Origin: Gammaproteobacteria bacterium
Lineage (GTDB): Bacteria; Pseudomonadota; Gammaproteobacteria; Eutrophobiales; Eutrophobiaceae
Direction of reading: 5' to 3'
DNA: 43,052 bases
Assembly: GCA_038922895.1 (NCBI GenBank)
Contig: JBCKWF010000002.1
Coordinates: 1 to 43,052, forward strand
Under the pieces are notes generated by a model that worked only from the letters and a program-made list of their open reading frames with translations, was not told the origin of the DNA and searched no databases. Each line of letters begins with the position of its first letter. The stretch's first letter is position 1. Position numbers and translations under genes: made by a program. Of the stretch, positions 2,339 to 23,275 are shown in pieces.

Positions 2339-4084
2339 TCACGCCACCACCACTTCGCGGAACATACCCGCATCCATATGCAAGGACAGGTGACAATGCC
2401 ATGCCCAGCGGCCGCGCGCATCGGCAGTGACCAGACAGGTGACACGTTGAGCCGGCTGCACGGTGATGGTGTGTTTGCGCGCCTGGAAGAATCCTTCAGG
2501 ACTTTCCAGTTCGCTCCACATGCCGTGCAAATGCATGGGGTGCGTCATCATGGTGTCGTTGACGAAAATCACGCGCAGCCGTTCGCCGTAGCGAAAGTGC
2601 ACCGGCGTGGACTTGCCGAATTCGAGACCGTCGAGCGACCAGGTATAGCGCTCCATATTGCCGGTGAGATGCAACTCTATCTCGCGCTCTGCGCCACGCG
2701 GGTCTATCGGTCCGCCGATGGTGTGCAGATCGGCATAGGTAAGCACGTGGCGGCCGTTGTTGCGCAGTCCAATGCCGGGGTCATCGAGGTTGGTGCGCGG
2801 AGAGTCAACACGCATGTCCACACTCGAACCGTACTCGGATTTGGCGTGACGTGCGTGCACGATATTATTCCCCATGGCCATACTGCCGTGCTTCATCCCC
2901 ACCATGCCAGCCATACCACCGTCATTCATACCCGACATGTCACCCATCATGTCCTCCATGGTGAGCGGCCCAGGTTTATTCAGCGCAGGAACCAGTGCCG
3001 TCATGCCTGCGCGCAGTGCCAGCGTTCCGCGGGCAAAGCCGGTGCGATCCATGGACTGCGCGAAGATCGTGTACGCCTCATCCTTCGGGCTGACGATAAC
3101 ATCGTAGGTCTCGGCCACTCCAATTCGAATCTCATCCACCGTCACCGGTTCGACGTCCTGACCATCAGTCTGGACCACGGTCATCTCGAGTCCCGGAATG
3201 CGGACGTCAAAAAAGGTCATCGCGCCGCTGTTGATGAAGCGTAACCGCACCCTCTCGCCCGGACGGAACAATCCGGTCCAATTCCCAATCGGTGTCGTGC
3301 CATTCACGAGATAGGTATAGGTGTAGGCGGAGACATCGGCGAGATCAGTTGGGTTCATGCGCACCTGGCCCCACATCTTGCGCTTGGCAAGAGCAGACGA
3401 AAGCCCCTCATCAGAAACATCGCGGAAAAAATCGAGGGCCGTTGGCTGGTTAAAGTTGTAATAGTCGCTTTGTACCTTGAGCTTGGCGAAAACCCGCATC
3501 GGATCTTCATCGGTCCAGTCGGACAACTGCACCACATAGTCGCGATCGGCGTGAATCAGGTCGGTACCGACCGAATCGATGATGATGGCACCGTACATGC
3601 CGGTTTGCTCCTGCATGCCGGAATGCGAGTGATACCAGTAGGTTCCAGACTGTTCTACCTTGAAGCGATAGACAAAGGTTTCTCCAGGCGCTATACCTCG
3701 GAAACTGATTCCCGGAACACCGTCCATCTCGAAGGGGAGCAGGATGCCGTGCCAATGTATTGAGGTGACCTCTTGCAGTTTGTTCGTCACACGGATTGTG
3801 ACCGTGTCACCCTCGCGCCAGTGCAAGGTTGGCGCAGGGATGGAGCCATTGATAGACGTAGCCATGCGTGGTTTGCCGGTGAAATTCACCTGCGATTCGG
3901 CGATAACCAGGTCGAATTCCGTACCGCTGAGGACAGGCGCTGTACCCGTAGCCGTGCTCACCCCGTTTGCCCATGCCGGTTTGATTGGTTGTGACAGACC
4001 GAGTAGCACACCGCCCGCGACCAGGCCTTGAACGAAGCGTCGACGGGGCAAATCAGTGCCAAATCTTTGCAAACGATATTTCAT
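2339..4084 (-). CDS. copA: periplasmic multicopper oxidase CopA/PcoA
   Basis: Start trimmed to the ATG at 4082-4084, giving MKYRLQRFGTDLPRRRFVQGLVAGG (twin-arginine signal). Multicopper oxidase His clusters are present: SIHWHGILLP, WYHSHSG, HPMHLHG, WHCHLSLHMDAGM. There is a Met-rich insertion, MEDMMGDMSGMNDGGMAGMVGMKHGSMAMG. Confidence 0.95.
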   Translation of the reverse strand: MKYRLQRFGTDLPRRRFVQGLVAGGVLLGLSQPIKPAWANGVSTATGTAPVLSGTEFDLVIAESQVNFTGKPRMATSINGSIPAPTLHWREGDTVTIRVTNKLQEVTSIHWHGILLPFEMDGVPGISFRGIAPGETFVYRFKVEQSGTYWYHSHSGMQEQTGMYGAIIIDSVGTDLIHADRDYVVQLSDWTDEDPMRVFAKLKVQSDYYNFNQPTALDFFRDVSDEGLSSALAKRKMWGQVRMNPTDLADVSAYTYTYLVNGTTPIGNWTGLFRPGERVRLRFINSGAMTFFDVRIPGLEMTVVQTDGQDVEPVTVDEIRIGVAETYDVIVSPKDEAYTIFAQSMDRTGFARGTLALRAGMTALVPALNKPGPLTMEDMMGDMSGMNDGGMAGMVGMKHGSMAMGNNIVHARHAKSEYGSSVDMRVDSPRTNLDDPGIGLRNNGRHVLTYADLHTIGGPIDPRGAEREIELHLTGNMERYTWSLDGLEFGKSTPVHFRYGERLRVIFVNDTMMTHPMHLHGMWSELESPEGFFQARKHTITVQPAQRVTCLVTADARGRWAWHCHLSLHMDAGMFREVVVA

Positions 4085-4211
4085 GGCAGTAAAAATGCCT
4101 CCAACAAAGTAAACAACTCTTAAGGAAACTGACTCCATACATTGCAAATAGCCGTGTATGGCCTAAGTTCTAAGTGTAAAGGACCATAAGTGTCATACCC
4201 ATGACTCGACC

Positions 4212-4227
4212 ATTACATTTCTGTAAT
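4212..4227. promoter_or_regulatory. copper-box-like palindrome ATTACATTTCTGTAAT in the copA/copR divergent region
   Basis: Perfect inverted hexamers TTACAT/CTGTAA-type (ATTACA-N4-TGTAAT). It lies 97 nt upstream of the copR GTG and 127 nt upstream of the copA ATG. The architecture resembles the CusR/PcoR/CopR copper boxes (TGACAA-NN-TTGTCA type). A TAGAAT hexamer at 4247-4252 sits 19 nt downstream on the plus strand, consistent with a box overlapping the -35 of a copRS promoter. Confidence 0.55.
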
Positions 4228-4324: not shown

Positions 4325-5008
4325 GTGAAACTTCTTGTCGTTGAGGATGAAGCAAAGACGGGCGAATACATCCGCCAGGGATTGACTGAAGCCAGTTTCG
4401 TTGTCGATCTTGCAAGAAATGGGCTGGATGGTCATCACATGGCCATGAAGGAATCCTATGACCTGATCGTGCTTGACGTGATGCTACCCGACGTGGATGG
4501 CTGGCATATCGTACAGTCGCTACGCGAGGCCAACAAGAATACGCCCGTGTTGTTTTTGACAGCCAGAGACAGCGTGATGGATCGCGTCAAAGGCCTGGAG
4601 TTGGGGGCGGACGATTACTTGGTCAAACCTTTTGCGTTCTCGGAGTTGCTCGCGCGGATTCGTTCCTTGCTACGTCGGGGTAGTAGCCAGGTTATGGCCG
4701 ATCGCCTGCAAGTGTCTGACCTGACTCTCGATCTACCACGCCGGCGTGCTACCCGCGCAGGCACACTTATCAACCTGACCAACAAGGAGTTCATTCTGTT
4801 GGAATTACTGGTGCGAAGACAGGGTGAGGTATTGCCACGCTCTCTCATCGCTTCTCAAGTGTGGGACATGAATTTCGACAGCGACACCAATGTGGTTGAT
4901 GTCGCTATTCGACGATTACGCGCCAAAATTGACGATCCTTTCGAAATCAAACTTATTCGTACAGTTCGTGGTATGGGTTATACCCTGGACGTTCCCGATG
5001 ATGACTAA
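4325..5008 (+). CDS. copR: OmpR-family copper-responsive response regulator (CopR/CusR)
   Basis: GTG start. Receiver domain MKLLVVEDE...[16 protein letters not shown]. Winged-helix output domain ending in [14 protein letters not shown]. Divergent from copA and overlaps the copS start. Confidence 0.92.
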
Positions 5009-6392
5009 GCGCATGAACCGCCGTCCCGTTTCTCTGGCGTTACGGGTCACAGTCCTTGTCGGCATAGCAACGACACTGGTATTCATGATCTCTGCATTAT
5101 TCATAGAACGTTCGATTGAACAACACTTCGCCGAACAGGATCTTGGGGAACTTCAGGCCGTCTCCCAATCTATAGGGACGATACTTGGCGATATACCATT
5201 GGCAGACAGCCGGGAAGTATTGCAACAACGACTTGCTGGCGCGGTCGCGGGGCACCACGGCGTTTACTTTGCCGTGCTGGATAAACAAGGACAACGGTTA
5301 TATGCAACAGCAGACTCTGATCTCTCAGAGTATGCGCGCATTCAGACCGCGGTATCCAGCATGGATGCTGACACACTTCGAATCTGGTCGACACCGGGTA
5401 AAACCTATCGTGGTGAACTATTGAATATGAGTGGATACACCGTATTGGTGGCCACTGCCATGGATTTTCATCTGCGTTATCTCGAACAACTTAAACGCGG
5501 ACTGTGGATCGGCACCTTCGTTGCGAGCATAATCGCCATTTTTGTAGCGTGGTTGGCGGTACAGCGGGGGCATGCACCCATCCGTCGCATCAGCACCAGA
5601 ATGCGCGGCGTTACCTCTGAACGCCTGGATATCCGGCTTGATCCGGGGCAAGTACCCATCGAGCTGGCGGAACTGGTGTCATCCTTTAATGCGATGCTCG
5701 AGCACATCGGAGAAAGCTATCATCGCCTGTCGCATTTTTCGGCTGATATTGCCCACGAGTTGCGCACGCCAGTGACCAACCTCACGACCCAGACGCAGGT
5801 AGCCTTATCAAAGGTGCGTAGCATCGAGGCATACCGGGAAATACTTTACTCGAACCTGGAGGAATTCCAACGCATGGCTAAAATGATCGGCGACATGCTG
5901 TTTCTCGCACAGGCCGATCATGACCTGATCAAACCTGAGCAGGGCGATGTCAACCTGGCTGTCGAAGCCCGCGCATTATTCGAATATTTCGAAGCCTGGG
6001 CGGATGATCGCGGAATCTCTCTCGTGCTGGAAGGTGCGACGCCAATCGTTCGAGGTGATCGACTGACACTGCGCCGCGCACTCAGCAACTTGATTTCCAA
6101 CGCCATTCCCCATACGCCTTCTGGCGGGGCTATTACCGTAAGGCTCACGATTGACTCGGGAATTGTCGTAGTGGAGGTGGAAAACCCCGGCCCTGATATC
6201 CCCACCGAGCATTTGTCACGACTATTCGATCGCTTCTACCGTGTTGATCCATCTCGACAGTACACGGGCGATGGGGTAGGACTCGGACTTGCCATTGTCA
6301 AATCCATCATTGATGCACATTCCGGAACAATCTCCGTGACTTCCATCAATGGTTTAACGCGGTTTCGGCTCTCGCTGCCTGGTAAGGATTAA
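4998..6392 (+). CDS. copS: copper sensor histidine kinase (CopS/CusS)
   Basis: Start taken at the ATGATG overlapping the copR stop (ATGATGACTAA), giving [29 protein letters not shown] (TM1). Also has a second TM segment, the H-box [13 protein letters not shown], and the ATP-binding boxes SNAIPHTP and [14 protein letters not shown]. Confidence 0.9.
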
Positions 6393-7543: not shown

Positions 7544-8811
7544 TGAAGTGGCCCCCTTTACATGGACAACCTGAGATTAATTTAAGCCCTGACATGCTTG
7601 ATTATTCAAGCTCAGGCGACTTGAGAAATTGTTCGGTATTGATAGTACACTTCATCCGGTGTCAGATCATCCAGACTCTGATGAAACTGCTCCTGGTTAT
7701 ACCAGTCAAACCACTGTACTAAACTTAGCTTTACCTCCTTCAGATTGCCAAATGCCCGGGTGTACAGATGCTCATACTTGACGCTACGCCATAACCGTTC
7801 AACGAAAATATTATCACGCTAGCAGCCTTTGCCATCCATGCTGATCTGGATGTGATTGTCCTTCAGCATGTCTGTAAATGCCTCACTGGTGTACCGGGCA
7901 CCCTGGTCGGTGTTGACTATCTGTGGACAACCATAGTCCTGCATAGCGGCCTCCAGCGCCTGGACACAAACGTCTGCCTCCATCGTATTGGACAGCCGCC
8001 AACTGAGTACCTTGCGGGAATACCCATCCAGGATGACGACCAGATACGCAAAGCCTTTCTCCATCGGCACATAGGTAATATCCGATGCCCGGACCTGATT
8101 AGCCCGGTCAACTCCCAAGCCCCTCAGCAGATAGGGATAGACCTTGTGTAGCTTGCCTCACGGTATTGGTCTTAGGTTTGGGGGCCGTACTGCTAATGCC
8201 CACAGTCACCATCATGCCCGCTGCCCTGTTCCGGCCCACATCTTAGCCCCTGTCGTTTGAACCAGGTGGCATAACTGCGGGCGCCGTATTGGGGTGTGTT
8301 CAAATATTGCTCATCCATCCGCCGCAATAATACCAACGCCTCTGCATGCAGTGACCGTGGCTGATAGTAGTAGCCCGAGCGAGACAGGCCGAGCCATGCG
8401 CACTGACGGGTCGTGCCCGGATTATCATGGGGCTCAATCATGGCCTTGCGCTCCGCAGGTCTCAGTGATCGAGCCTTCTGGCTAAAAAATCCCTTGCCAC
8501 CGTCAGTTGACCTATCACCCGATGCCAATCATCCACACTGTGATTTTCGGTTTTGTTATGCCCGTTCCCGAGTGCAAATAACGCCGCCAGAGGCGGAGGC
8601 ACCCGTCTTTTCCAGCTAGTGATCCGGGTCGGATGGGGTCCATACCGAGTGGCTAACTGGGGGACCGTTTCATCACTTCGGATTACCGCCAGGGCCACTT
8701 TTGCCTTGAAATCATTGGAATACTGCTTGCGCTTCCTGGCTCATGTTGATTGCTCTCTTTATGATTCATATCAGAGCTTAACAACCTGTCCAGTTTTTGG
8801 GTACCACTTCA
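7544..8811 (-). mobile_element. IS3-family insertion sequence (1268 bp) with decayed orfA/orfB
   Basis: Terminal inverted repeats are TGAAGTGGCCCCCTTTACATGGACAAC (7544-7570) and, on the opposite strand at 8785-8811, TGAAGTGGTACCCAAAAACTGGACAGG. The first 8 nt are identical and about 18 of 27 match. Identical TCA triplets flank the element at 7541-7543 and 8812-8814, a 3-bp target duplication. Confidence 0.85.
7612..8744 (-). pseudogene. IS3-family transposase orfA/orfB, multiple lesions
   Basis: The orfA ATG at 8742-8744 is out of frame by one base with RKRKQYSNDFKAKVALAVIRSDETVPQLATRYG. At least two extra frameshifts occur between ...WFKRQGL and HKVYPYLLRGLGVDRANQV. The DDE core reads DITYVPMEKGFAYLVVILDGYSRKVLSWRLS...NTDQGARYTS. 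An in-frame TAG at 7819-7821 sits where Trp is expected (GKGC*RDNIFVERLWRSVKYE). The stop is at 7612-7614. Confidence 0.85.
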
Positions 8812-8823
8812 TCAATATGTTAA

Positions 8824-10126
8824 GGGCACCTCTAAAAATTGCTGCCAAATTTCCGCTTAGACAACCGAGGTGCGGACTAACCGGGTAAAATTGCGTACAT
8901 TGAAACCCCCGGGTACAAACGATGAAAAGTAAAAGGCAACCAGGATTTTTTGACATGGCGGAACGCACCGCCAAGCTCGCCCGGATGGGCGACCCGCTGG
9001 TTGGGCTGAAAGACCAAATCAAATGGGAAGCGTTCCGCCCCGACCTGAATCGTGTGCACGAGAAGGAACCCAAAAGCAACGCGGGCGCCAAGCCGATTGA
9101 TGTCGTGCTCATGTTCAAGGTGCTGGTGCTGCAACAACTGCACAACCTGTCCGATGAGCGCATCGAATACCAGATACGTGACCGGCTCTCCTGCATGCGC
9201 TGTCTGGACTTGCAGATCGAAGATCGCGTACCGGATGCCAATACCGTCTGGCTGTTTCGCGAGCGCATGAAAGAACTGAAACTGGTTGACGTGTTGTTTG
9301 CCCGCTTCCACGAACAATTGGCCACGCAAGGCTACGCGGCACGTGCCGGCCAAATGATTGACGCCACCTTTGTCGAAGTACCGCGCCAGCGCAACACCCG
9401 CGAAGAGAACGCCCAGGTCAAGGCAGGCGAGACGCCCGCCGAGTGGCAATAACCCGCACAGAAATCCAAGCTGCGCCAAAAGGACGTAGACGCCCGCTGG
9501 CCGAAGAAGAACCACGAAAATCACTACGGCTTCAAGAACCACGTCAACGCGGACCAAGGTAACAAGCTGGTGCAAAGCTACGAGGTCAGCGATGCTGCGG
9601 TACACGACAACCAGGTGTTTGAAACGTTGCTGGATCAGACCGAAGACAAAGAGGGGAAGAAGCGTGCGATCTATGCGGACAGCGCCTATCGCTCAAAGGA
9701 AAAAGAAGAACAACTGGCCGCCGCCAACATGCCAAGCCAGATCTGCGAGAAGGGCGCGCGTAACCATCCGCTGACCGAAGAACAGAAAGCATCGAACAAA
9801 GAGAAAAGCAAAGTTCGCTCACGCGTCGAACATGTGTTTGGAGCGCAAGCGCAGATGGGTGGGCACATCGTGCGCACCATCGGCCTACTGCGTGCCAAGG
9901 TCAAAATCGGCATGATGAATCTGGTGTACAACATGATGCGTCTGGGGCACACCGCTACGCTGCTCAGACGCGACAGGAGAGGTGCGCCCGCTATGGCGTG
10001 AAATGGCAGAAATGCCTGGAAAATAGGCGGCATTCGGACGAATTCAACAGAAAAATCGCTCGGGTTGCTGAAATTTTATGAAAGGTTGAAACTGAGAGAA
10101 ATTAGATTGGATTTTTAGAGATGCCC
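8824..10126 (+). mobile_element. IS5-family insertion sequence (1303 bp)
   Basis: Inverted repeats are GGGCACCTCTAAAAAT (8824-8839) and the reverse complement of 10111-10126, GGGCATCTCTAAAAAT (15 of 16 match). TTAA flanks the element on both sides (8820-8823 and 10127-10130), a 4-bp target duplication. It lies 8 bp from the IS3 end. Confidence 0.9.
8922..10001 (+). pseudogene. IS5-family DDE transposase interrupted by one in-frame TAA
   Basis: Track ORFs 8922..9452 and 9570..10001 are in the same frame. Reading through the TAA at 9450-9452 gives ...GETPAEWQ*PAQKSKLRQKDVDARWPKKNHENHYGFKNHVNAD..., the conserved IS5 KD.DARW.KK....YG(F/Y)K.H block. I saw no other lesion. Confidence 0.85.
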
Positions 10127-10330
10127 TTAATAACGTTACAAGTTAAGTGGAAGTTACCGCAGCTATTTTGTAACATTCCATGATTTATCCAGCCAAGTTA
10201 AGATTATATTCTGGCTACATTAAGAATTTGGGAGCGTCGCAAGGTGTTGATTTGTAAAGCACCTGTATTTGCCCTGATATAGATATGCCTTTAGGTTACG
10301 TAAAATTGAGGCCTGTGTTATTCTGAATCC

Positions 10331-10699
10331 ATGAAATTCCGTACGCTCATCTCTCAGATGCTGGCGGTTCTTGCCGTTATGGGCCTGCTATTGACACCGA
10401 TGGTGCGCCCAGCCAGCGCCATGCCTGCCAACATGGCCGACATGATGGACATGGCGGGCGATAACACAGCAATGGACATGCCTGCAGATATGCCTTGTTG
10501 CCCGGACCAGGCCCCAAAGTCAGATTGCACCAAAGATTGTCCCTTCCTGGCGTTGTGTATTTCAGGCAGTGTTCTGAACTTGCCTGCAAGCGCCGGGTTG
10601 TTGCTACCACTTGAAGCTATGCAGTTGGTATTTCCCGACAATAATGCAGACTTTGCCAGTCTCAACTACGATCCTCCCCTAAGACCTCCCAAACACTGA
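10331..10699 (+). CDS. small secreted/membrane Met- and Cys-rich protein leading the cus-type operon (CzcI-position; possibly DUF2946-like)
   Basis: Signal peptide MKFRTLISQMLAVLAVMGLLLTPMVRPASA. Met-rich block MPANMADMMDMAGDNTAMDMPADMP. Cys cluster CCPDQAPKSDCTKDCPFLALC. A second hydrophobic segment, then a C-terminal DPPLRPPKH. No convincing Shine-Dalgarno sequence. Confidence 0.6.
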   Translation: MKFRTLISQMLAVLAVMGLLLTPMVRPASAMPANMADMMDMAGDNTAMDMPADMPCCPDQAPKSDCTKDCPFLALCISGSVLNLPASAGLLLPLEAMQLVFPDNNADFASLNYDPPLRPPKH

Positions 10700-10703
10700 A
10701 GTT

Positions 10704-10802
10704 CAGCATCAGTACCTGATGGTGCTGATGCTGTCGTATGCGTAATTGCTGCGGCGGTGACGTGATATTGCCACGATAACGCCGTCCGTCCCGGACGGCG
10801 TT
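10704..10802 (+). other. intercistronic RNA structure: alternative hairpins plus an 11-bp GC-rich stem
   Basis: CAGCATCAG (10704-10712) can pair with CTGATG (10716-10721) or with CTGATGCTG (10725-10733). AACGCCGTCCG (10778-10788) pairs perfectly with CGGACGGCGTT (10792-10802) across a 3-nt loop. No T-run follows. Confidence 0.5.
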
Positions 10803-10826
10803 GAACTGAACTTTGGGAGATAAACA

Positions 10827-11234
10827 ATGAAAGTATCAAACAACATGCGTGCCGTGTTCGCGGCGCTGATCGGTCTGTTATGGACAGTAGGTGCATCGCC
10901 TGTCCTGGCAGATGTGAAGGACTATCAATTCGAGTTGGTAGAAAGCCAGTTGAAGAAAGGGGATGAGGTGATCATCGCCGTCCGCCTTCTTAACAAGAAG
11001 ACTGATCAAGTGGTGCCGGACGCGGTGATTTTCGCCAGGCGCATCGACATGGCGCCGGATGGAATGGCGACCATGACCGCACCATTAGAGGCCCTGCCAT
11101 CGACCGAGCCAGGCGTGTACCGCTTCCAGACTAATCTGATGATGGCGGGTGGCTGGCAGTTGTCGTTGGGCGCAAAGATCCAGGGTGAAGAAGGAACGGT
11201 AGAGAGCAGGCTGGTACTGAAGATCCTGCCATGA
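10827..11234 (+). CDS. periplasmic FixH/YtkA-like domain protein
   Basis: GGGAGA Shine-Dalgarno sequence 7 nt upstream. Signal peptide ...LLWTVGASPVLA. The pattern MAPDGMATMTAPL...GVYRFQTNLMMAGGWQLSLGAKI matches my memory of YtkA/FixH-type beta-sandwich proteins found in copper operons. The stop overlaps the cusB start (ATGA). Confidence 0.6.
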   Translation: MKVSNNMRAVFAALIGLLWTVGASPVLADVKDYQFELVESQLKKGDEVIIAVRLLNKKTDQVVPDAVIFARRIDMAPDGMATMTAPLEALPSTEPGVYRFQTNLMMAGGWQLSLGAKIQGEEGTVESRLVLKILP

Positions 11235-12637
11235 ACCGCACCATTTGGGTACTTCTGATCCTCGCAGTGCTGGTGGCGGTGGGGGTTGGCGGATATTGGG
11301 CCGGGGAGCACGATGTCGGTATGCCTGCATCGATACCAGTGGAGACGTCAACCGTCACAAATGCGCCATACGGTCCGGTGATTTATTACCGGGACCTGGA
11401 TGAGAAGCCGTTCTACTCGCTTGAACCGAAACTAACTCCGGATGGCCGCCCCTGGCGTCCTGTACTGGCCAGCGAAGATGTAAGTTTCGATGGACAGACC
11501 AAAGCGCTGGTACCTACGGCTGTAAACCAGTCTGCGCCTGGGCGGATCATTTACTACCGTCACCCCATGGGACTTCCAGATATCTCACCAACACCGAAGA
11601 AGGACTCGATGGGAATGGATTACATCCCTGTCTATGGAGATGAGGGTAACGAGGGGGCCGGTATCAGGATAAGTGCGGGAAAACTGCAACAGATCGGCGT
11701 CAAGTCGGAGGCTGCACAACAGCACATCATTGTCGAACCGGTACGTGCGCCAGGTATCATCCAACTCGATGAGCGACGTATCGCGGTAATTTCCTTGCGT
11801 TCTGAAGCATTCATAGACACTGTTGAGGACATCACTACAGGGAGCGAGGTCAGACTAGGCCAGCCGTTGATGCGAATTTACAGTCCGGCGGTTGCCGCGG
11901 CCGCTGCTGAATATCTCTACAACTTGAAGCTGGGGAGTGATGAGGCAAGGCTCCGGGGAACAAGGCAACAGCTATTGAATCTTGATGTTCCGTCAGATTT
12001 CATTAAGGATATTGAGCGCACACGCGAAATACCGTTGACCTTTACCTGGACCTCGCCCCGAGACGGTATTGTGCTTGAGCGTAATGTGGCCGATGGAATG
12101 CGAATTATGCCGGGCGATGTGCTGTTTCGCATCGCAGATCATCTAATCGTATGGGCACTGGTTGATGTTACAGAACGCGATCTCGCTGACGTCGATATCA
12201 ACCAGCCTGTCGTAGTACGGGTGCGCAGCTATCCTGACCTTACTTTCCCAGGAAAGATTGCACTTGTCTACCCGCATCTCAATCCATCCACCCGTACGGT
12301 ACCGGTGCGGATCGAGATTGCCAATCCGGATTTCCTGCTGCGGCCTGGCATGTATGCAGAGGCTGAAATTGACACCGGCAGCGGCCAGCCAGTACTCGCC
12401 GTTCCGGATAATGCCGTGATTGACAGCGGCAGCCGCCAGTATGTCATTGTCGATAAGGGCGAAGGGCGTTTCGAACCGCATCCCGTCCAACCCGGACGCC
12501 GGGGTGGTGGTTATGTAGAAATCCGCGAAGGTATTGCTGAAGGTGATTTGGTGGTTATTTCTGCGAATTTTTTAATCGATGCAGAAAGTAATCTTAAAAG
12601 TGCACTCAATAGTTTGACCAGCGCAGGAACACCTTAG
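11231..12637 (+). CDS. cusB: HME-RND periplasmic adaptor, CusB family
   Basis: N-terminal TM segment. The CusB-type motif IIYYRHPMGLPDISPTPKKDSMGMDYIPVY is comparable to E. coli CusB YWYDPMYPNTRFDKPGKSPFMDMDLVP. Barrel-sandwich and beta-barrel regions follow. Translationally coupled to both neighbours. Confidence 0.9.
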   Translation: MNRTIWVLLILAVLVAVGVGGYWAGEHDVGMPASIPVETSTVTNAPYGPVIYYRDLDEKPFYSLEPKLTPDGRPWRPVLASEDVSFDGQTKALVPTAVNQSAPGRIIYYRHPMGLPDISPTPKKDSMGMDYIPVYGDEGNEGAGIRISAGKLQQIGVKSEAAQQHIIVEPVRAPGIIQLDERRIAVISLRSEAFIDTVEDITTGSEVRLGQPLMRIYSPAVAAAAAEYLYNLKLGSDEARLRGTRQQLLNLDVPSDFIKDIERTREIPLTFTWTSPRDGIVLERNVADGMRIMPGDVLFRIADHLIVWALVDVTERDLADVDINQPVVVRVRSYPDLTFPGKIALVYPHLNPSTRTVPVRIEIANPDFLLRPGMYAEAEIDTGSGQPVLAVPDNAVIDSGSRQYVIVDKGEGRFEPHPVQPGRRGGGYVEIREGIAEGDLVVISANFLIDAESNLKSALNSLTSAGTP

Positions 12638-15600
12638 TGATAACGAGATTGATCGAAGCCTCCGCCCGCAATATTACGCTCGTATTGATTGGTACCGCGT
12701 TCGCTGTGTTGGCCGGTATCTATGCGATTTTTAATATGCCGCTCGATGCGATTCCGGATCTGTCCGATACGCAGGTCATCGTTTATACCGAGTATCCAGG
12801 TCAGGCACCCCAGGTGGTTGAAGACCAGGTCACCTATCCGCTGACAACGGCGATGTTGAGCGTACCTAACTCGCGAGTAGTGCGCGGTTTTTCTTATTTT
12901 GGTGTCTCCTTTGTTTATGTGATCTTTGATGAGGGCACTGACATTTATTGGGCACGTTCCCGTGTACTCGAATATCTGAATGCGGCGGTCAGGCGTTTGC
13001 CCGCTGGGGTCACACCAAGCCTTGGACCGGATGCAACCGGGGTCGGTTGGGTTTATCAATATGCCCTGTTATCCAGGGACCATACACTAGCCGAACTTCG
13101 TTCTTTGCAGGACTGGTATGTACGTTACGGCCTTGCCGGGGTGGACGGTGTGGCGGAGATCGCCAGTGTCGGCGGTTTCGTCAAGCAATACAACGTGGTC
13201 GTCGACCCGCAGCGACTACGCAGTTTTGATATTCCCCTCTCTGCGATCCGTGAGGCTATACGCGCCAGTAACATGGATGTGGGCGGCCGCACGGTCGAGC
13301 TGTCTGAATTCGAGTTTGTAATACGTGGGCACGGCTACCTTAAAGGTATCCCTGATCTGGAAAAGATCGTCCTCAAGAATGACGGTGGCACACCGGTATT
13401 GTTGCAGGATGTGGCGCGGGTCGAACTGGGACCGGACGAACGCAGGGGCATAACTGAACTTAATGGCGAAGGCGAAGTGGTAAGCGGTATTGTCTTGCAG
13501 CGCTTTGGCGAGAATGCGCTGGAGGTTATTGAGAATGTCAAAGAACGCATTGTGAAAATTACTGAAAGTCTGCCGTCAGGTGTGAAGATCATACCGGTCT
13601 ATGATCGATCGACCCTGATTTATGCTGCGATGGATACCTTGCGGCGCACATTATTTGAAGAGGGTGCGGTAGTAGCACTGGTGTGCATTGTATTTCTTCT
13701 GCATGTTCGAAGTGCACTGGTCGCAATTCTGATGCTGCCGGTCGGTGTACTGATGGCCTTTGCTGCCATGAACGCGCTCGGCATGGGTTCCAACATCATG
13801 AGCCTTGGCGGGATAGCCATTGCAATCGGTGCTATGGTAGATGCAGCGATCGTCATGATCGAGAATGCGCACAAACACCTCGAACGAAGTAAGCCTGACA
13901 AACCACGTCTGGAAATTCTGATTGAGGCGGCCGGCGAGGTTGGTCCTGCCTTGTTCTTCAGTCTGTTGATCATCACTGTCTCGTTTTTGCCTATATTCAC
14001 GCTGGAGGCCCAGGAAGGCAGACTGTTCAGCCCGCTCGCCTATACCAAGACATTTGCAATGGCGGCAGCAGCGCTCCTCTCGGTGACGCTTGTGCCCGCG
14101 CTGATGGTGATCTTTATTCGTGGACGGATTATCCCGGAACACAAAAATCCGCTGAACCGTTGGTTAATCTGGCTTTACCGTCCGGTGATCCGGGTTGTCC
14201 TTAAGGCAAAGCTGCTGACACTTGCCCTCGCGGCGGTGGTACTTGCTGTGACCCTGTGGCCTGCAAGGCAACTCGGAACGGAATTCATGCCGAACCTGAA
14301 CGAAGGTACGCTGCTCTATATGCCGACCACGTTGCCGGGCATTTCCATCACCAAGGCTGCCGAATTACTGCAAATACAAGACCGGATCATAAAATCGTTT
14401 CCGGAAGTGGAATCAGTTTACGGCAAGGCTGGTCGTGCCTTGACCGCAACCGACCCGGCCCCGCTCGAAATGACAGAGACGGTAATTAATCTGAAGGCCA
14501 AGGCCGCATGGCGGACAGGGGTAACTATTGACTCACTGGTGGCGGAAATGGACAGTGCACTACAGTTCCCCGGTGTCTCAAACGCCTGGACCATGCCGAT
14601 CAAGGCACGTATCGATATGCTTTCCACCGGTATCCGGACCCCGGTTGGGATCAAGGTATTCGGTACTGACCTCGCTGAAATGGAGCGACTGGCCCGCGAG
14701 ATTGAACAAGTGCTGAAAACTGTTCCCGGGACATCCAGCGCCTACGCGGAAAGGATCAGCGGTGGCTATTATCTGGATATCACACCTGACCGCGATAGTA
14801 TTGCGCGTTATGGCCTTATGGTCGGTGATGTACAGGACGTCATTGCGACTGCGCTGGGCGGTGAGGCGGTGACCACGACTATCGAGGGTCGGGAGCGTTA
14901 TACAGTCAATGTCCGTTACCCGCGTGACCTGCGTGATAGCCCGCAGGCGATTGCGAGCAATGTACTTGTGCCGTTGCCCGGTGGTGGGACGGTACCTCTG
15001 GGCGATGTGGCGTCGGTTCAGCTTACGCGGGGGCCCACAAGCATCCGTACCGAAGATGGCCAGCTTGCGGCTTATATTTTCGTCGATATCCGTGACCGCG
15101 ACCTGGGCGGCTATGTTACCGATGCGCAAAAGGCGGTGACAGACAATGTAGAGTTTCCATCCGGGTACTATGTTACCTGGAGCGGTCAGTATGAATATCT
15201 TGAACGTGCAAAGGCACGCTTGCAGGTCGTGGTGCCGGTAACATTGCTTATTATATTCCTGTTGCTGTATCTGAATTTCCGCACCTTGAGTGACACATTC
15301 ATCGTGATGCTTTCCCTGCCCTTCGCAATGGTGGGCGGCTTCTGGCTGTTGTGGGGGTTGGGATTCAATCTGTCGGTAGCTGTGGTGGTTGGATTCATTG
15401 CGCTCGCGGGCGTGGCAGCGCAGACAGGTGTGGTGATGTTGCTTTATTTAAATAATGCTTTTAACGAAATTATAGCAAAGCGGGCTGCTGCAGGACAACA
15501 TCTCACTCGTATCGATGTGCATGAGGCGATTATGCTCGGGGCGGTGGAGCGTGTGCGTCCGAAGATGATGACGGTGACGGCGATCATGGCCGGATTGTTG

Positions 15601-15765
15601 CCTATCATGTGGAGTACCGGTGCCGGCTCGGAAGTAATGCAGCGCATAGCGGTACCGATGCTAGGCGGTATGGTTTCTTCGACAGCACTGACATTGGTAG
15701 TCATCCCCGCCATTTACGGTCTGGCAAAAGGCTGGGGGCTGCCAAAAAAACTTCCCAAGGCCTAA
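12637..15765 (+). CDS. cusA: HME-RND inner-membrane pump, CusA type (monovalent Cu/Ag)
   Basis: GTG start overlapping the cusB TAG. TM4 signature GGIAIAIGAMVDAAIVMIEN (AIG-DAA-EN, the monovalent class). The three CusA methionines are conserved in context: LLYMPT, APLEMTET, RIDMLSTG. Length 1042 aa. Confidence 0.95.
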   Translation: MITRLIEASARNITLVLIGTAFAVLAGIYAIFNMPLDAIPDLSDTQVIVYTEYPGQAPQVVEDQVTYPLTTAMLSVPNSRVVRGFSYFGVSFVYVIFDEGTDIYWARSRVLEYLNAAVRRLPAGVTPSLGPDATGVGWVYQYALLSRDHTLAELRSLQDWYVRYGLAGVDGVAEIASVGGFVKQYNVVVDPQRLRSFDIPLSAIREAIRASNMDVGGRTVELSEFEFVIRGHGYLKGIPDLEKIVLKNDGGTPVLLQDVARVELGPDERRGITELNGEGEVVSGIVLQRFGENALEVIENVKERIVKITESLPSGVKIIPVYDRSTLIYAAMDTLRRTLFEEGAVVALVCIVFLLHVRSALVAILMLPVGVLMAFAAMNALGMGSNIMSLGGIAIAIGAMVDAAIVMIENAHKHLERSKPDKPRLEILIEAAGEVGPALFFSLLIITVSFLPIFTLEAQEGRLFSPLAYTKTFAMAAAALLSVTLVPALMVIFIRGRIIPEHKNPLNRWLIWLYRPVIRVVLKAKLLTLALAAVVLAVTLWPARQLGTEFMPNLNEGTLLYMPTTLPGISITKAAELLQIQDRIIKSFPEVESVYGKAGRALTATDPAPLEMTETVINLKAKAAWRTGVTIDSLVAEMDSALQFPGVSNAWTMPIKARIDMLSTGIRTPVGIKVFGTDLAEMERLAREIEQVLKTVPGTSSAYAERISGGYYLDITPDRDSIARYGLMVGDVQDVIATALGGEAVTTTIEGRERYTVNVRYPRDLRDSPQAIASNVLVPLPGGGTVPLGDVASVQLTRGPTSIRTEDGQLAAYIFVDIRDRDLGGYVTDAQKAVTDNVEFPSGYYVTWSGQYEYLERAKARLQVVVPVTLLIIFLLLYLNFRTLSDTFIVMLSLPFAMVGGFWLLWGLGFNLSVAVVVGFIALAGVAAQTGVVMLLYLNNAFNEIIAKRAAAGQHLTRIDVHEAIMLGAVERVRPKMMTVTAIMAGLLPIMWSTGAGSEVMQRIAVPMLGGMVSSTALTLVVIPAIYGLAKGWGLPKKLPKA

Positions 15766-15808
15766 CCGATAGTTTTTCCGTATACTTTTTAATCTCTCCG
15801 GGTTCAAT

Positions 15809-15838
15809 TCCCCGCCCCTTGGGGCGGGGAAATTTATT
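15809..15838 (+). terminator. rho-independent terminator after cusA
   Basis: TCCCCGCCCC (15809-15818), TT, GGGGCGGGGA (15821-15830), followed by AATTTATT. Confidence 0.75.
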
Positions 15839-15942
15839 AATGAGTTTTTTCCGGTTAGCCAATATCAGCGTTTACGGTAGTTAAGTCGTATTATATCCAG
15901 CAAAACTGGACACGCGGGGAAAAAAGAATTACTGTTGATTTT

Positions 15943-16350
15943 ATGGCAAGGTGGAGAAGATGTATTCAACATTATCCGGCAATCGGCTTGTTGCTGGTTG
16001 TAACGCTGGTTGTGCAACTGCTGTTTCAGTTACGATTTCATTTACATCATGATCCCAACCCGCAATCACAAGGACATGAGCATGTTATTGATTTTCATGT
16101 CCTGGTAGACGATCATGAAACTGATCATAATGGCCAGGAAAATGTACATGAATTGAAATCCGCACCGGACGCTATTGTCAAAAAATTTCTGGGCGGTGAT
16201 ACCGGTTTCTTGTTCTCCGTTTGCCTGTTATTACTCTTTCCGGTTGTAATCATTGCCATTAATCGTCAGTGGTCATTGCCGCGAAATTCAGTTATTCACA
16301 GCCTGTACTACGGTCTCGCCCCACCACTTCGCGCACCTCCCGCACTCTAG
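15943..16350 (+). CDS. small His/Asp/Glu-rich membrane protein leading the czc-type operon (CzcI-position; possibly DUF2946-like)
   Basis: N-terminal hydrophobic segment AIGLLLVVTLVVQLLF. His-rich block HLHHDPNPQSQGHEHVIDFHVLVDDHETDHNGQENVHE. Second hydrophobic segment FLFSVCLLLLFPVVIIAI. C-terminal GLAPPLRAPPAL. Weak ribosome-binding site. Position and architecture parallel ORF 10331..10699. Confidence 0.5.
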   Translation: MARWRRCIQHYPAIGLLLVVTLVVQLLFQLRFHLHHDPNPQSQGHEHVIDFHVLVDDHETDHNGQENVHELKSAPDAIVKKFLGGDTGFLFSVCLLLLFPVVIIAINRQWSLPRNSVIHSLYYGLAPPLRAPPAL

Positions 16351-16461
16351 TCCCATTCTGTCGTTGACATAATACCGGCCGCAGGCGGCTTTATCTCCTG
16401 TGCGTCAGTATTCCTTTGTCCCTATGGCCGGATAACCACGCTTATCCGGAGGAATTGAGCG

Positions 16462-17705
16462 ATGAACACTAGATTAATGTTTCTGCTTTACGGCACTTTT
16501 TTATCTGTGGCGGTGTCTGCACAGAGTGTTGCACAAGAGGGCCTGACACTGAATCAGGCCATAATCCAGGTACTGGAAAACAATCCTGGATTGCAGATTG
16601 CCGACTATGAGGCACAGGCGATGGCGGCACGCATGCGCCATGCCGTTCAGCCGCCGTCAGACAGGATTGCCCTGACTCTGGAGAATTTTGCGGGTACTGG
16701 TCAGACTGTCGCTATGCGCAGTATTGATGCTACGCTAAGCCTGTCCCGTACGCTGGAACTGGGGAACAAGGCCGCCAGCCGTGGAGATGTTGTGCAGGGA
16801 GAGACGCAATTGTTACGCACGCAAAGGGACATCGACCGTCTTAACCTGCTCGCGGACACGGCACAGCGGTTTCTGCACGTGGCAGCTGATCAGGAAAGGC
16901 TACGGTTGATCGAAAAGGCCCTGGCGCTGGTTCGACTGACTGAGCATGCCGTTCAGGAGCGCATTCAGACAGGCAGTACAGCGGAGACGGAACGGCACCG
17001 GGTCGTCATTGATCTGGCGAACCACGAGATCGAGATCGAGCATATCCGGCATGAACTTGAAAATTCGCGGTTGAGTCTGACGACGCTATGGAATGTCCGG
17101 CAGCCGGATTTTGATAGTGTTGCTGCGGACATCTTTAGCCTCGATGAATTGCCGGATTTTGAACAACTGACTAACCTGCTCGACCGCAATCCTCAACTGA
17201 TTCAGCATATCCGGGCGGAAGACCTTGCCCGGGCCAGAATAAGACTGATGCAGAGTCGCAGCAGACCCGATGTGGATGTGACGGCGGGTCTACGTTATCT
17301 CGGCGGCAGTAACGATGTTGCCGCGATGTTATGGGCCAGCATCCCGCTGGGCTCCACCTCGCGTGCCCAGCCTGGTATTGACGAGGCCGAATCGCTGGCC
17401 AGAATCGAACCGTTAAACTTTGAACAACAGCGACTGGAGCTGTACGCCACCCTGTTTGAGTTTTACCAGGAAATGAAACATGCGAGAGAAGCCGTTGCAA
17501 CATTGAATGAGAAGATTATTCCGGCCGCCGAACAAATGTTGAATGACTATGAGAGCGGTTACCAGGCCGGGAGGTATTCCCTGCTTGAACTCATCCAGGC
17601 CCAACAGTTATTACACAATGCACGAACGCAGTTGCTTGAGATGGCGGTCAATTTTCACAGCCGCAAGATCGAAATCGACCGGCTGACTGCCGCCCAACTT
17701 ACGGA

Positions 17706-17712
<7 letters not shown>
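16462..17712 (+). CDS. czcC: outer-membrane efflux factor (TolC-like, CzcC family)
   Basis: GGAGG 9 nt upstream. Signal peptide MNTRLMFLLYGTFLSVAVSAQS. Two OEP-type repeats, including LTLNQAIIQVLENNPGLQ. The stop overlaps the next gene. Confidence 0.88.
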
Positions 17713-22132
<4,420 letters not shown>

Positions 22133-22174: not shown

Positions 22175-23275
22175 ATGTTGGTCAAACGCAACTATATTTC
22201 TCTGGGAATGGGCATGTTGCTTTACACACTGCTGTGTCCACTTGTCTATGCGCACGGTATGACCGAGGCTGAAAAACTGATCATTATGGAAGGCGGCAAT
22301 CTGGGTTATATGGAGATCGGTGCAACACATATGTTGACCGGCTATGATCACCTGTTGTTTGTATTCGGGGTCATCTTTTTTCTGCGCACATTCCGTGACA
22401 TCGTTAAATATGTCACTGCGTTCACACTCGGACACAGCGTTACCTTGATTTTCGCTACACTTAACGCCATACAGATAAATTACTTTCTTATTGATGCGGT
22501 GATTGGTCTGAGTGTCAGCTATATTGCCTTTGCCAACATTGAGGGCTTCCGTAGATATCTTGATATTAAACCGCCCAACATGCTGGTGATGATCACATGT
22601 TTAGGCCTGATCCATGGCCTCGGATTATCTTCGCGATTACAAGAACTACCTCTAAGCGAAGACAGTTTATTGCTCAATATTATTTCGTTCAATGTCGGTA
22701 TTGAACTGGGGCAGATTTTTGCCCTGTTGCTGATGATATTGGCCATTGATATCTGGCGCAAAACTGAGTCGTTCCAAAAATTCAGTCTAGTGTCAAATTA
22801 TCTGCTCATATGCGCAGGCGTGTTGCTTTTCCTGATGCAAATGCACGGATATACTCATCTGAGCGACCCGCTACAGTTCGCTGTTGCATCAACGCAGGTT
22901 CAGGGGGGTGTGAACGGGACAGACACTGTCACCATTGCTGCCAGCACTGGATCCAGGATTCAATGGAAGGATACGATCAATATCACGATACCGGCGAATG
23001 GCTCAAAAGAATACAAGTTCCAGATGCTGGAAAACGGCGTGCTTGAATATGCATGGAAAACTGACATTGAAAAACTGTTTTACGAATTTCACGGAGAGCC
23101 CAAGGGAGACACAACGGGTTATTTTAAAAGCTATGAAAAAAATACAGCCGATCAGGCTACGGGTATATTAAATGCGCCGTTTGAGGGTATCCATGGCTGG
23201 TACTGGCAGAATAATACCTTGTCACCCGTCAATATCGTTCTGAATGTAAAAGGCGAGTATAAACGCCTGGATTGA
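22175..23275 (+). CDS. HupE/UreJ-like (HupE_UreJ_2-type) membrane protein fused to an unassigned ~120-aa C-terminal domain
   Basis: AGAGGA ribosome-binding site; the gene starts 42 nt after czcA. Signal-like N-terminus. Motifs THMLTGYDHLLFVFGV, FTLGHSVTL, GLIHGLGLSS and FNVGIELGQ resemble the HupE/UreJ_2 family as I remember it. Residues from about 245 to 366 (WKDTINITIPANGSKEYKFQMLENGVLEYAWKTD...FYEFHGEP...HGWYWQNN...) are non-membrane and beta-rich. Confidence 0.7.
   Translation: MLVKRNYISLGMGMLLYTLLCPLVYAHGMTEAEKLIIMEGGNLGYMEIGATHMLTGYDHLLFVFGVIFFLRTFRDIVKYVTAFTLGHSVTLIFATLNAIQINYFLIDAVIGLSVSYIAFANIEGFRRYLDIKPPNMLVMITCLGLIHGLGLSSRLQELPLSEDSLLLNIISFNVGIELGQIFALLLMILAIDIWRKTESFQKFSLVSNYLLICAGVLLFLMQMHGYTHLSDPLQFAVASTQVQGGVNGTDTVTIAASTGSRIQWKDTINITIPANGSKEYKFQMLENGVLEYAWKTDIEKLFYEFHGEPKGDTTGYFKSYEKNTADQATGILNAPFEGIHGWYWQNNTLSPVNIVLNVKGEYKRLD

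Follow-up and report, generated by a model that had tools for sequence, protein, structure and literature searches.

Switches in which a metal governs the translational arrest of a leader peptide were described between 2022 and 2025. CutF of Rhodobacter capsulatus, encoded in cutFOG, needs a signal peptide, a CxxxC motif, a PPP motif and a stem-loop that shields the Shine–Dalgarno (SD) sequence, and Cu strengthens its arrest whereas EF-P counteracts it (PMC9973294; 10.1101/2025.02.05.636593); the Cys motif and the Pro motif are 45 residues apart (PMC9973294). There are 5,334 ‘CutF-like’ proteins, for which the commonest downstream neighbors are OEP, ACR_tran, HlyD_D23, and CusF genes; they carry Cys, His, or mixed ligand motifs, and clusters with His-only motifs adjoin HupE/UreJ genes (PMC9973294). 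Here we describe two small open reading frames (ORFs) in a 43,052-nt stretch of contig JBCKWF010000002.1 (GCA_038922895.1; Gammaproteobacteria, Eutrophobiaceae), hereafter the window: ORF1 (10331–10699, + strand, 122 aa), which heads a Cus-type resistance-nodulation-division (RND) operon, and ORF2 (15943–16350, + strand, 135 aa), which heads a Czc-type RND operon. Each is a putative leader peptide with a sequence family of its own (family 1 and family 2, respectively), and on their sequence features both are probably cis-acting, metal-sensing translation-arrest leaders, the same kind of device as CutF and CruR.

CruR of Bordetella pertussis (Bp2923), a DUF2946 (PF11162) protein, has CXXC and RAPP motifs 45 residues apart and acts via Rho, and the ruler across DUF2946 is 45 ± 2 residues (PMC9426467); arrest by CruR was shown in vitro (PMC12992588). 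RAPP is an experimentally established arrest motif for which the arrest has been solved structurally (PMC10951233), and RAPP and RGPP are overrepresented at the C-terminal ends of the small secretory and membrane proteins that upstream ORFs (uORFs) encode ahead of metal genes (PMC12992588). Release of the arrest by the pulling force that arises during export or insertion is established logic (PMC7897499; PMC10951233; PMC12992588). Because the CutF, CruR, and RAPP papers describe both architecture and mechanism, the class and its mechanism are already published, and the statement in an earlier note on this DNA that the function of such proteins is essentially unknown is out of date; the idea of a metal-specific sensor and the suspected link to DUF2946/RAPP, both from that note, are supported by the data below. 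The cited CutF, CruR, and RAPP literature includes no experimentally characterized member that leads an RND operon. As far as we found, three things are undescribed in the literature searched: the two sequence families, the use of arrest codons as an anti-SD, and a His-type RAPP design with two transmembrane (TM) segments and a fixed ruler from TM2 to RAPP.

Family 1: Distribution and Protein Features

A word-based protein search yielded just four relatives of ORF1, and tblastn against plasmids together with a genome scan gave ~80 loci, in Bradyrhizobium, Afipia, Tardiphaga, Rhodoplanes, Agrobacterium, Shinella, and Mesorhizobium, where the product is annotated as ‘hypothetical protein’ throughout. 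Nearly all loci have the same order, with the ORF followed by a gap of ~85–140 nt, a YtkA/FixH-like gene, a CusB-type adaptor, and a CusA-type pump. The pump motif A[IV]GAM[VI]D[AG]AIVMIEN lies 3′ of the leader in 66 of the 78 distinct loci, the remainder being cut by contig ends, and none has a DFG pump. With 264 clusters for family 2 (see section “Family 2: Distribution and Protein Features”) and synteny kept in both families, the conservation upstream of homologous operons for which the earlier note had called is found; since both ORFs belong to conserved families with conserved synteny, the observation is far beyond chance.

The ‘membrane protein’ description given to both ORFs, and the layout with a second hydrophobic segment, hold for ORF2, which has a two-TM hairpin; the sequence of ORF1 is better read as that of a secreted peptide whose AxA signal peptide is cleavable. 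Inspection and hydropathy predict a Sec-type signal peptide in residues 1–30 (10331–10420, +), with K2, R4, a hydrophobic core (Kyte–Doolittle maximum 2.02, residues 7–25), and RPASA followed by Met, and a small-x-small cleavage-type site is present in 85 of 90 relatives. The second hydrophobic segment of ORF1 is weak (Kyte–Doolittle 1.64) and poorly conserved, with Lys or Gln there in relatives, and does not qualify as a TM segment. A Met-rich block (residues 31–55; 10421–10495, +) contains eight Met, close to the nine counted previously, and the protein as a whole has 13 Met and five Cys. The sequence of this block varies among relatives, although the segment is 17% Met across 65 of them.

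Residues 56–76 (10496–10558, +) comprise a Cys motif, CCPD-x6-C-x3-C-P-x4-C, with columns that are invariant in relatives. The family consensus is ADMPCCPD...C-x2/3-C-P...C, and all five Cys are invariant across 28 members; ORF1 itself has CTKDC (CxxxC), most relatives CxxC. From the second Cys of CxxC/CxxxC to the last PP there are 48–49 residues in all 75 distinct sequences, despite an overall identity of just 30–40%. The C-terminus of ORF1 reads SLNYDPPLRPPKH, and its residues 115–121, PPLRPPK (10673–10693, +), are the proposed ribosome-stalling tail, ending near the stop codon. P115, P116, R118, P119, and P120 are invariant in close relatives, and the four Pro residues remain so across 28 members; in ~85 loci the tail takes the form PPPRPP[KR] or PP(P)D[HQ]PPR, 2–7 residues from the stop. 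The AlphaFold model of ORF1 is largely disordered (predicted local distance difference test, pLDDT, 53).

Family 1: Tail Codons as a Predicted Anti-Shine–Dalgarno Sequence

Read from the sequence, the peculiarity of family 1 is that the anti-SD is formed by the PP[R/K] arrest codons themselves. In the window, CUCCCAA from the codons of Pro119-Pro120-Lys121 (10686–10692, +) pairs with UUGGGAG (10813–10819, +), the SD region of the ytkA-like gene, which is thus predicted to be sequestered; the pairs from C10686–G10819 to A10692–U10813 have predicted probabilities of 0.64–0.97, and the fold of 10640–10850 has a z-score of −5.76. The intergenic region (10700–10826, +) is itself structured, with three internal hairpins and a second arm of the closing helix (10700–10706 with 10806–10812), and a comparable multi-hairpin leader architecture is present in family 1 relatives. 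When the footprint of a stalled ribosome is modeled at 10673–10702, the probability that the ytkA SD is paired drops from 1.0 in the free RNA to 0.22. Shortly 5′ of this SD, at 10779–10803, there is a perfect 11-bp hairpin (AACGCCGUCCG-UCC-CGGACGGCGUU) without a U tract, which belongs to the multi-branch leader and has GC-rich equivalents in relatives.

Across the family, the end of the leader (its final eight codons, the stop, and another six bases) pairs with the SD of the following gene at a predicted probability above 0.5 in 59 of 65 distinct loci, with a mean of 0.76. Synonymous recoding of the last 14 codons of the leader according to local codon usage lowers this mean to 0.28 (Wilcoxon p = 6e-12, 65 loci). 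Codon choice in the tail is likewise biased: of the 73 Arg codons that follow the last PP, 63 are the otherwise uncommon CGA, vs 49 of the 484 Arg codons elsewhere in these ORFs (Fisher p = 3e-41), and CCT accounts for 149 of the 362 Pro codons of the tail (41%), vs 94 of 733 elsewhere (13%; p = 5e-25). The bias apparently arises because the tail codons pair with the ribosome-binding site of the next gene, by way of CCUCGA/UCGAGG in the Bradyrhizobium group and CUCCCAA/UUGGGAG in the window and in one relative (L015). The family 1 tail is selected also as RNA.

The long-range helix was not recovered by RNAalifold from a MAFFT alignment of 58 leader–spacer regions, which gave seven trivial pairs at −3.4 kcal/mol. 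We attribute this to register shifts, and therefore rely on pairing probabilities for each sequence and on the synonymous-recoding control. The core helix is 88% paired and nearly invariant, and its extension is misaligned in the MAFFT alignment; a slid-register control favors the helix register given above (72.6% vs 27–49%).

Family 2: Distribution and Protein Features

For ORF2, a word-based search yielded just three relatives, and a full hidden Markov model (HMM) search was needed to reveal the family, which comprises 264 clusters at E ≤ 1e-3, nearly all of 125–145 aa and matched over their full length. A tblastn search against plasmids gave no match for ORF2, and a metagenome locus scan for family 2 gave a single short contig. 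The hosts are mostly marine and environmental Gammaproteobacteria, again with the annotation ‘hypothetical protein’ throughout. As far as each contig reaches, all 12 of the contexts retrieved consist of the leader, an OEP and/or CzcB-type adaptor, and ACR_tran.

The family 2 order is a positive N terminus, TM1, H-x-H-L-H-H, H-x-H-x-x-D-x-H, an acidic His-rich loop, PD..KK, TM2, a linker of ~24 residues, PPLRAPP, one or two residues, and the stop. In ORF2, TM1 or a signal anchor (residues 12–30; 15976–16032, +) is read from the sequence after R3, R5, and R6; the AlphaFold model (pLDDT 68 overall) has a helix at residues 2–27 with moderate confidence. The His-rich acidic block (residues 31–70; 16033–16152, +; HLHH..., HEHVIDFH...) is predicted to be periplasmic and is modeled as a beta-hairpin (30–37/46–53) at a pLDDT of about 65. 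Residues 33–70 hold nine of the 11 His of the protein, where about ten had been counted before, and nine Asp/Glu. H33 and H52 are invariant in one alignment, with H31, H36, and H47 nearly so; among 110 sequences, H33, H36, H47, H52, P127, L129, and A131 are >90% conserved, and R130, P132, and P133 are invariant. Mean composition across 218 family members is 11.6 His, 1.3 Cys, and 3.1 Met, and no Cys is invariant. TM2 (residues 88–106; 16204–16260, +) is strongly hydrophobic (Kyte–Doolittle 2.89). The sequence is consistent with an N-in/C-in hairpin in which the His loop is periplasmic: the charge distribution fits this topology, and the moderate-confidence model agrees.

The C-terminus of ORF2 reads SLYYGLAPPLRAPPAL, in which residues 127–133, PPLRAPP (16321–16341, +), are a RAPP-type arrest motif two residues from the stop. 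PPLRAPP occurs in 155 of 218 family members, and RAPP is followed by one or two residues in 196 of the 218. In these 218 members the end of TM2 is 24.1 ± 2.1 residues from the Arg of RAPP; H.H..D.H is 83 ± 4.5 residues from the same Arg. In force-profile work with SecM-based sensors, the pull of the translocon starts with a hydrophobic segment ending about 27–28 residues from the arrest point, and the fixed spacing between TM2 and RAPP would fit this onset. The RAPP codons differ synonymously among family 2 loci, and thus selection in this family acts on the peptide. The Ala codon of RAPP (16333–16335 in the window) is GCA in 10 of 11 family 2 loci, with the Arg and Pro codons free to vary; this preference may reflect a tRNA-specific contribution to arrest.

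On the RNA side, a local hairpin (CCU..CCGGAUAA/UUAUCCGG AGG; 16421–16452, +) is predicted to occlude GGAGG (16448–16452), the SD of czcC. This SD is mostly buried in the hairpin, and in ~25% of the ensemble it pairs with CCUCC from the codons of Pro132-Pro133. A like hairpin, CCGGA...UCCGG(A/G)G, is present in four family 2 relatives (L095, L096, L098, and L101).

Comparison With CutF, CruR, SecM-Type Peptides, and CzcI

The resemblance to CutF lies in a small exported ORF (<150 aa) at the head of a metal-resistance operon, in the Cys motif of ORF1 about 45–49 residues ahead of a C-terminal Pro-rich stalling motif, and, as predicted for ORF1, in masking of the downstream SD by RNA structure. 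There is, however, no detectable sequence homology and no Pfam DUF2946 match, and CutF leads a multicopper oxidase gene whereas ORF1 leads a YtkA-CusBA operon. As an anti-SD, CutF uses a separate intergenic stem-loop in place of PP[R/K] codons. ORF1 further differs in having five Cys and a Met-rich stretch, and ORF2 in having no Cys ligands, two TM segments, and RAPP in place of PPP.

ORF2 resembles CruR in its C-terminal RAPP, 2–3 residues short of the end, in an export or anchor signal at the N terminus, and in heading a metal operon; the resemblance of ORF1 lies in a CxxC-type motif that keeps a conserved distance to the tail. CruR differs in that it represses a TonB-dependent importer via Rho and senses Cu by CXXC, whereas ORF2 has His ligands and a second TM segment and precedes an exporter. 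ORF2 also resembles the RAPP/RAGP arrest peptides that monitor protein export (SecM, ApdA, ApdP, ApcA, and MifM), as a small secretory or membrane protein that carries R-A-P-P at its C terminus and is encoded ahead of the gene to be regulated. Those peptides report Sec/YidC activity (MifM being a membrane-insertion sensor), but ORF2 precedes metal pumps, and the variable sensed would presumably be the metal occupancy of a loop that has already been exported.

CzcI of Cupriavidus metallidurans pMOL30 has the same position, upstream of czcCBA, with a signal peptide, a His-rich HLGHHEHRH, and CGVCH. Its tail SSLNARAPDRPQ locally resembles ASLNYDPPLRPP of ORF1, but it has neither a diprolyl nor a RAPP motif, and the absence of a Pro motif from CzcI has been reported (PMC9973294). 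The czcI gene examined here (L107, 15177–15524) encodes a tail, SSLNARAPDRPQWQRLA, that looks like a decayed RAPP/diprolyl tail; its RefSeq product name, ‘CDF family transporter’, is plainly wrong for a 115-aa protein. For CzcI, the hhalign probability was 2.4% with the ORF2 family and 1.0% with the ORF1 family.

As the earlier note had anticipated, homology to CzcI or DUF2946 could not be confirmed, with hhalign at ≤2.4% for CzcI and no Pfam or NCBIfam match at threshold. Neither ORF1 nor ORF2 matched any Pfam or NCBIfam model (DUF2946, CopL, or others), with nothing for DUF2946 at E ≤ 1; the 28 ORF1 relatives had no Pfam or NCBIfam match and no DUF2946 match at E ≤ 10. Sub-threshold DUF2946 matches occur in 13 of 110 ORF2 relatives (best E 0.013), and such weak matches, to DUF2946 and to SecM_small, come through family 2 only. 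The individual features of DUF2946 are divided between the families. Its conserved CXXC has a counterpart in the CxxC/CxxxC of the ORF1 family, and the ORF2 family has His motifs with no conserved Cys; the C-terminal RAPP is found in ORF2 (residues 130–133 of 135), and ORF1 has LRPPKH (PPR/PPK in relatives); the spacing of ~45 residues from metal motif to tail is approximated in the ORF1 family (48–49), and the ORF2 family uses a different ruler. Homology between ORF1 and ORF2 was considered and rejected (BLASTP E 0.01, gapped, over 88 residues; hhalign probabilities 0.5% and 2.9%), just the tail motif being common to both. Given that the two are not detectably homologous, the shared tail is a functional motif and not evidence of common descent.

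The rule-based features of CutF-like proteins (PMC9973294) are found in both ORFs: a small size (122 and 135 aa), PP 2–3 residues from the end, and a signal peptide by inspection and hydropathy (an ASA site in ORF1; RRR and an uncleaved TM anchor in ORF2). Masking of the SD is predicted in silico for ORF1; for ORF2 a hairpin covers the SD in the window and four relatives, but at a level no higher than in shuffled controls, and a modeled stall does not open it. Because these rules apply and PF11162 does not match, and because there is no profile homology between the two families or with CzcI, both ORFs are filed as probably working like CutF/CruR, with family membership unproven.

Ligand Type and Pump Type

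The earlier note had proposed that leader ligands track the pump class. This stands across the two families: family 1 relatives average 7.1 Met, 5.2 Cys, and 2.3 His and have Cus-type pumps in 66 of 66 cases, and the pumps of family 2 are DFG..DG..VEN in 8 of 10. It fails as a general rule, however. Two His-type leaders of family 2 (L007 and L103) precede AIG[VI]LVDAAVVVVEN pumps, and in Methylophaga (L106) and C. metallidurans (CzcI) a leader that contains Cys stands ahead of a DFG-type CzcA. Thus, leader chemistry matches the operon, but ‘His for Czc, Met/Cys for Cus’ does not hold generally.

The AIG[VI]LVDAAVVVVEN pumps (L007, 6866–9958; L103, 2136–5240) are a subtype that is neither classical Cus nor classical Czc; they are followed by P-II/DUF3240, with cation diffusion facilitator (CDF) or HupE neighbors, and in L103 no adaptor gene is called between OEP and pump. 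The Methylophaga leader, annotated as ‘hypothetical protein’, is encoded on a Methylophaga pinxianii plasmid (L106, 1553–1897). It is 114 aa long, starts with a signal peptide, carries CDFCMHCQC, and has MYRPPRS* as its tail; it lies 64 nt upstream of a TolC-adaptor-CzcA operon (DFGLIVDGAVIIVEN), and so is a Cys-type leader on a divalent-type pump. A 105-aa ORF (L001, 3603–3920, − strand; HCYVC ... RLDTPPPKHLT*) leads an OEP-CzcB-PII-ACR_tran operon and constitutes a third, unrelated type of CutF-like leader, on a contig that also has an ORF1 relative.

Proposed Mechanism and Alternative Explanations

Each leader would control the RND operon behind it after transcription start. Taken separately, the arrest-leader reading is likely for ORF1 and slightly favored for ORF2, in both cases on sequence features. 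In ORF1, the nascent chain would thread SecYEG such that the Cys/Met site is just periplasmic when the ribosome decodes PP; binding of Cu(I) or Ag(I) would then take away the pulling or folding force that helps the ribosome past the diprolyl motif, and the ribosome would dwell on 10673–10702, freeing the SD at 10813–10819 for translation of ytkA-cusB-cusA. In ORF2, insertion of TM2 would normally pull the chain free of arrest, and Zn, Co, or Cd at the His loop would alter the insertion force of TM2 and prolong the arrest; longer arrest would lead to more czcCBA-hupE expression, through unmasking of the hairpin-occluded SD or blocked transcription termination. Tentatively, family 2 may be viewed as a regulator-free sensor of divalent metals (Zn/Co/Cd/Ni), in which TM2 would gate RAPP arrest through its insertion force, and metal bound at the exported His loop would modulate that force.

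Several observations weigh against this proposal. Neither ORF fits the Pfam DUF2946 model, and ORF1 carries RPPK, not RAPP; strong arrest by ORF1 is not assured, because EF-P normally relieves diprolyl pauses. The spacers between leader and next gene in the window, 127 nt for ORF1 and 111 nt for ORF2, exceed the <100 nt reported as typical. The CusRS pair 4 kb upstream could supply transcriptional control, and whether metal prolongs or relieves the arrest is not the same in CutF and CruR; here the direction is inferred from efflux logic. Column covariation of the closing helix of ORF1, specified by hand on the MAFFT alignment, is weak, 30–81 of 500 shuffles matching the observed value in four of five measures and 268 of 500 reaching it in the fifth, further pair types; we gave this result less weight than the recoding test. 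For family 2, SD pairing is no higher than in shuffled controls (11 loci, p = 0.37), the ORF2 window fold has a z-score of 0.4, and a modeled stalled ribosome leaves the czcC SD paired (0.91 to 0.85). Rho-dependent coupling, as in CruR, is a live alternative for this family.

It is unlikely that the leaders are instead stable pump accessory proteins, in which case the Pro-rich tail would be a protein–protein contact motif, ORF1 a periplasmic Cu(I) chaperone or buffer, and ORF2 a membrane-anchored Zn/Co/Cd-binding modulator, a role as proposed for CzcI. Such proteins would account for the conservation of metal-ligand-rich segments in both families and for the helical hairpin and His-rich beta-hairpin in the moderate-confidence model of ORF2, and for CzcI, which occupies the equivalent position, a regulatory role has been discussed (PMC9973294). 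They would not account for tail codons that are kept as nucleotides and pair with the next SD in family 1, or for exact residue rulers that lead to a motif just 1–4 residues short of the stop. In addition, ordinary proteins strongly avoid RAPP, whereas small exported proteins encoded by uORFs are enriched for it at their C-terminal ends (PMC12992588), the model of ORF1 is mostly disordered, and CutF is degraded upon export (PMC9973294). Selection on the tail codons as RNA, together with the exact spacings to the tail, is also why the roles of substrate-delivery factor or pump modulator, offered in the earlier note, are not favored, although a dual role as arrest leader and stable protein is possible.

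Plain translational coupling without metal sensing, in which the SD helix opens whenever a ribosome completes the leader, the prolines do no more than slow termination, and metal control is transcriptional (by CusRS at 4325–6392, for example, or a distant CzcRS), appears distinctly unlikely. A closing helix over the stop region would couple the genes with or without arrest, and a CusR/CusS pair is indeed present in the island; nevertheless, the invariant Cys/His motifs, the export signal, and the fixed spacing of 48–49 (ORF1) or 24 ± 2 residues (ORF2) would be left unexplained, and the cop box that is perfect at 4212–4227 is absent upstream of both ORFs. The remaining alternative is that metal relieves the arrest as in CruR, so that bound metal shuts the pumps off, or that the leaders act via Rho-dependent termination in the long spacer and not via the SD. 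ORF2 has a RAPP motif in common with CruR, which acts via Rho (PMC9426467), as well as a 111-nt spacer and no significant SD switch. However, it would be physiologically senseless for a substrate to switch off its own efflux pump, and the SD-sequestering helix of ORF1 is strongly supported; we consider this alternative very improbable.

Operons and Genomic Context

The operon led by ORF1 comprises the YtkA-like gene (10827–11234, +), a CusB-type adaptor (11231–12637, +), and a CusA-type pump (ACR_tran; 12637–15765, +) that carries AIGAMVDAAIVMIEN. An intrinsic terminator-like hairpin with a T-rich tail (15808–15831, +) separates it from the ORF2 operon, which comprises a CzcC-type OEP (16462–17712, +), a CzcB-type adaptor (17706–18965, +), a CzcA-type pump (ACR_tran; about 18977–22132, +), and, as last gene, a HupE_UreJ_2 protein (22175–23275, +). 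Both ORFs lie ahead of their operons, on the + strand, at the coordinates that the earlier note had given, and their C-terminal tails read as it had reported. The presence of HupE_UreJ_2 at the end of the ORF2 operon echoes the published pairing of His-only CutF-like ORFs with HupE/UreJ genes. The Pfam domain spans residues 45–197 of the 366 in this protein, the C-terminal ~170 residues having no match; the Beggiatoa relative of the operon (L103) likewise closes with HupE_UreJ_2.

The island that holds both RND operons also contains a copper-resistance module with copB (1290–2402, −) and the multicopper oxidase gene copA (2339–4147, −), a cop box at copA/cusR that is a perfect palindrome (ATTACATTTCTGTAAT; 4212–4227), a CusR-type response regulator (4325–5008) with a CusS-type kinase up to 6392, and insertion sequence (IS) fragments. 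It adjoins the housekeeping genes hemN, rdgB, rph, yicC, gmk, spoT, and recG. The earlier remark that neither operon has a regulator of its own is borne out, with no adjacent regulator ahead of either, but the same island does carry the CusR/CusS-type pair (4325–6392); the window holds no other pair of metal regulators, and between this one and ORF1 lie IS fragments and a methyltransferase gene. The cop-box search matched only at copA/cusR and not ahead of ORF1 or ORF2, and a sigma-70 promoter scan found no + strand candidate 5′ of either ORF. An Rfam scan of 9900–16600 gave no match, and two ad hoc palindrome searches 5′ of ORF1 were uninformative.

Immediately 5′ of ORF1 (7800–10001) lie several transposase ORFs that are broken or overlap one another (DUF772, DDE_Tnp_1, and an integrase-like fragment), which suggests that the RND operons came in, or were rearranged, through IS activity. 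Elsewhere in the window, a 497-aa ORF (25189–26682, −) with no Pfam match at E ≤ 0.001 adjoins a gene for a UmuC/DinB-type polymerase (23662–24990).

Implications for Metal Efflux

Heavy-metal RND pumps are usually thought to be under two-component or MerR/ArsR control. If the leaders act as proposed, many Cus- and Czc-type operons would hold a built-in, post-transcriptional sensor of periplasmic metal for which no regulator protein is needed, with a reach of ~80 loci in the Bradyrhizobium group and 264 clusters. Both families are missed by Pfam and NCBIfam, and operon predictions or transfers of resistance genes that drop the leader would misjudge expression. Family 1 offers an unusually clean test case, since the arrest codons and the anti-SD are identical nucleotides, and family 2 offers a test of whether arrest peptides read divalent metals by His ligands and TM insertion. 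If this is true of family 2, nascent-chain metal sensing would extend from copper and Cys to hard-ligand metals and to the force of membrane insertion, and a single island would bear two orthogonal arrest-peptide switches, one Cu-type and one Zn-type, side by side.

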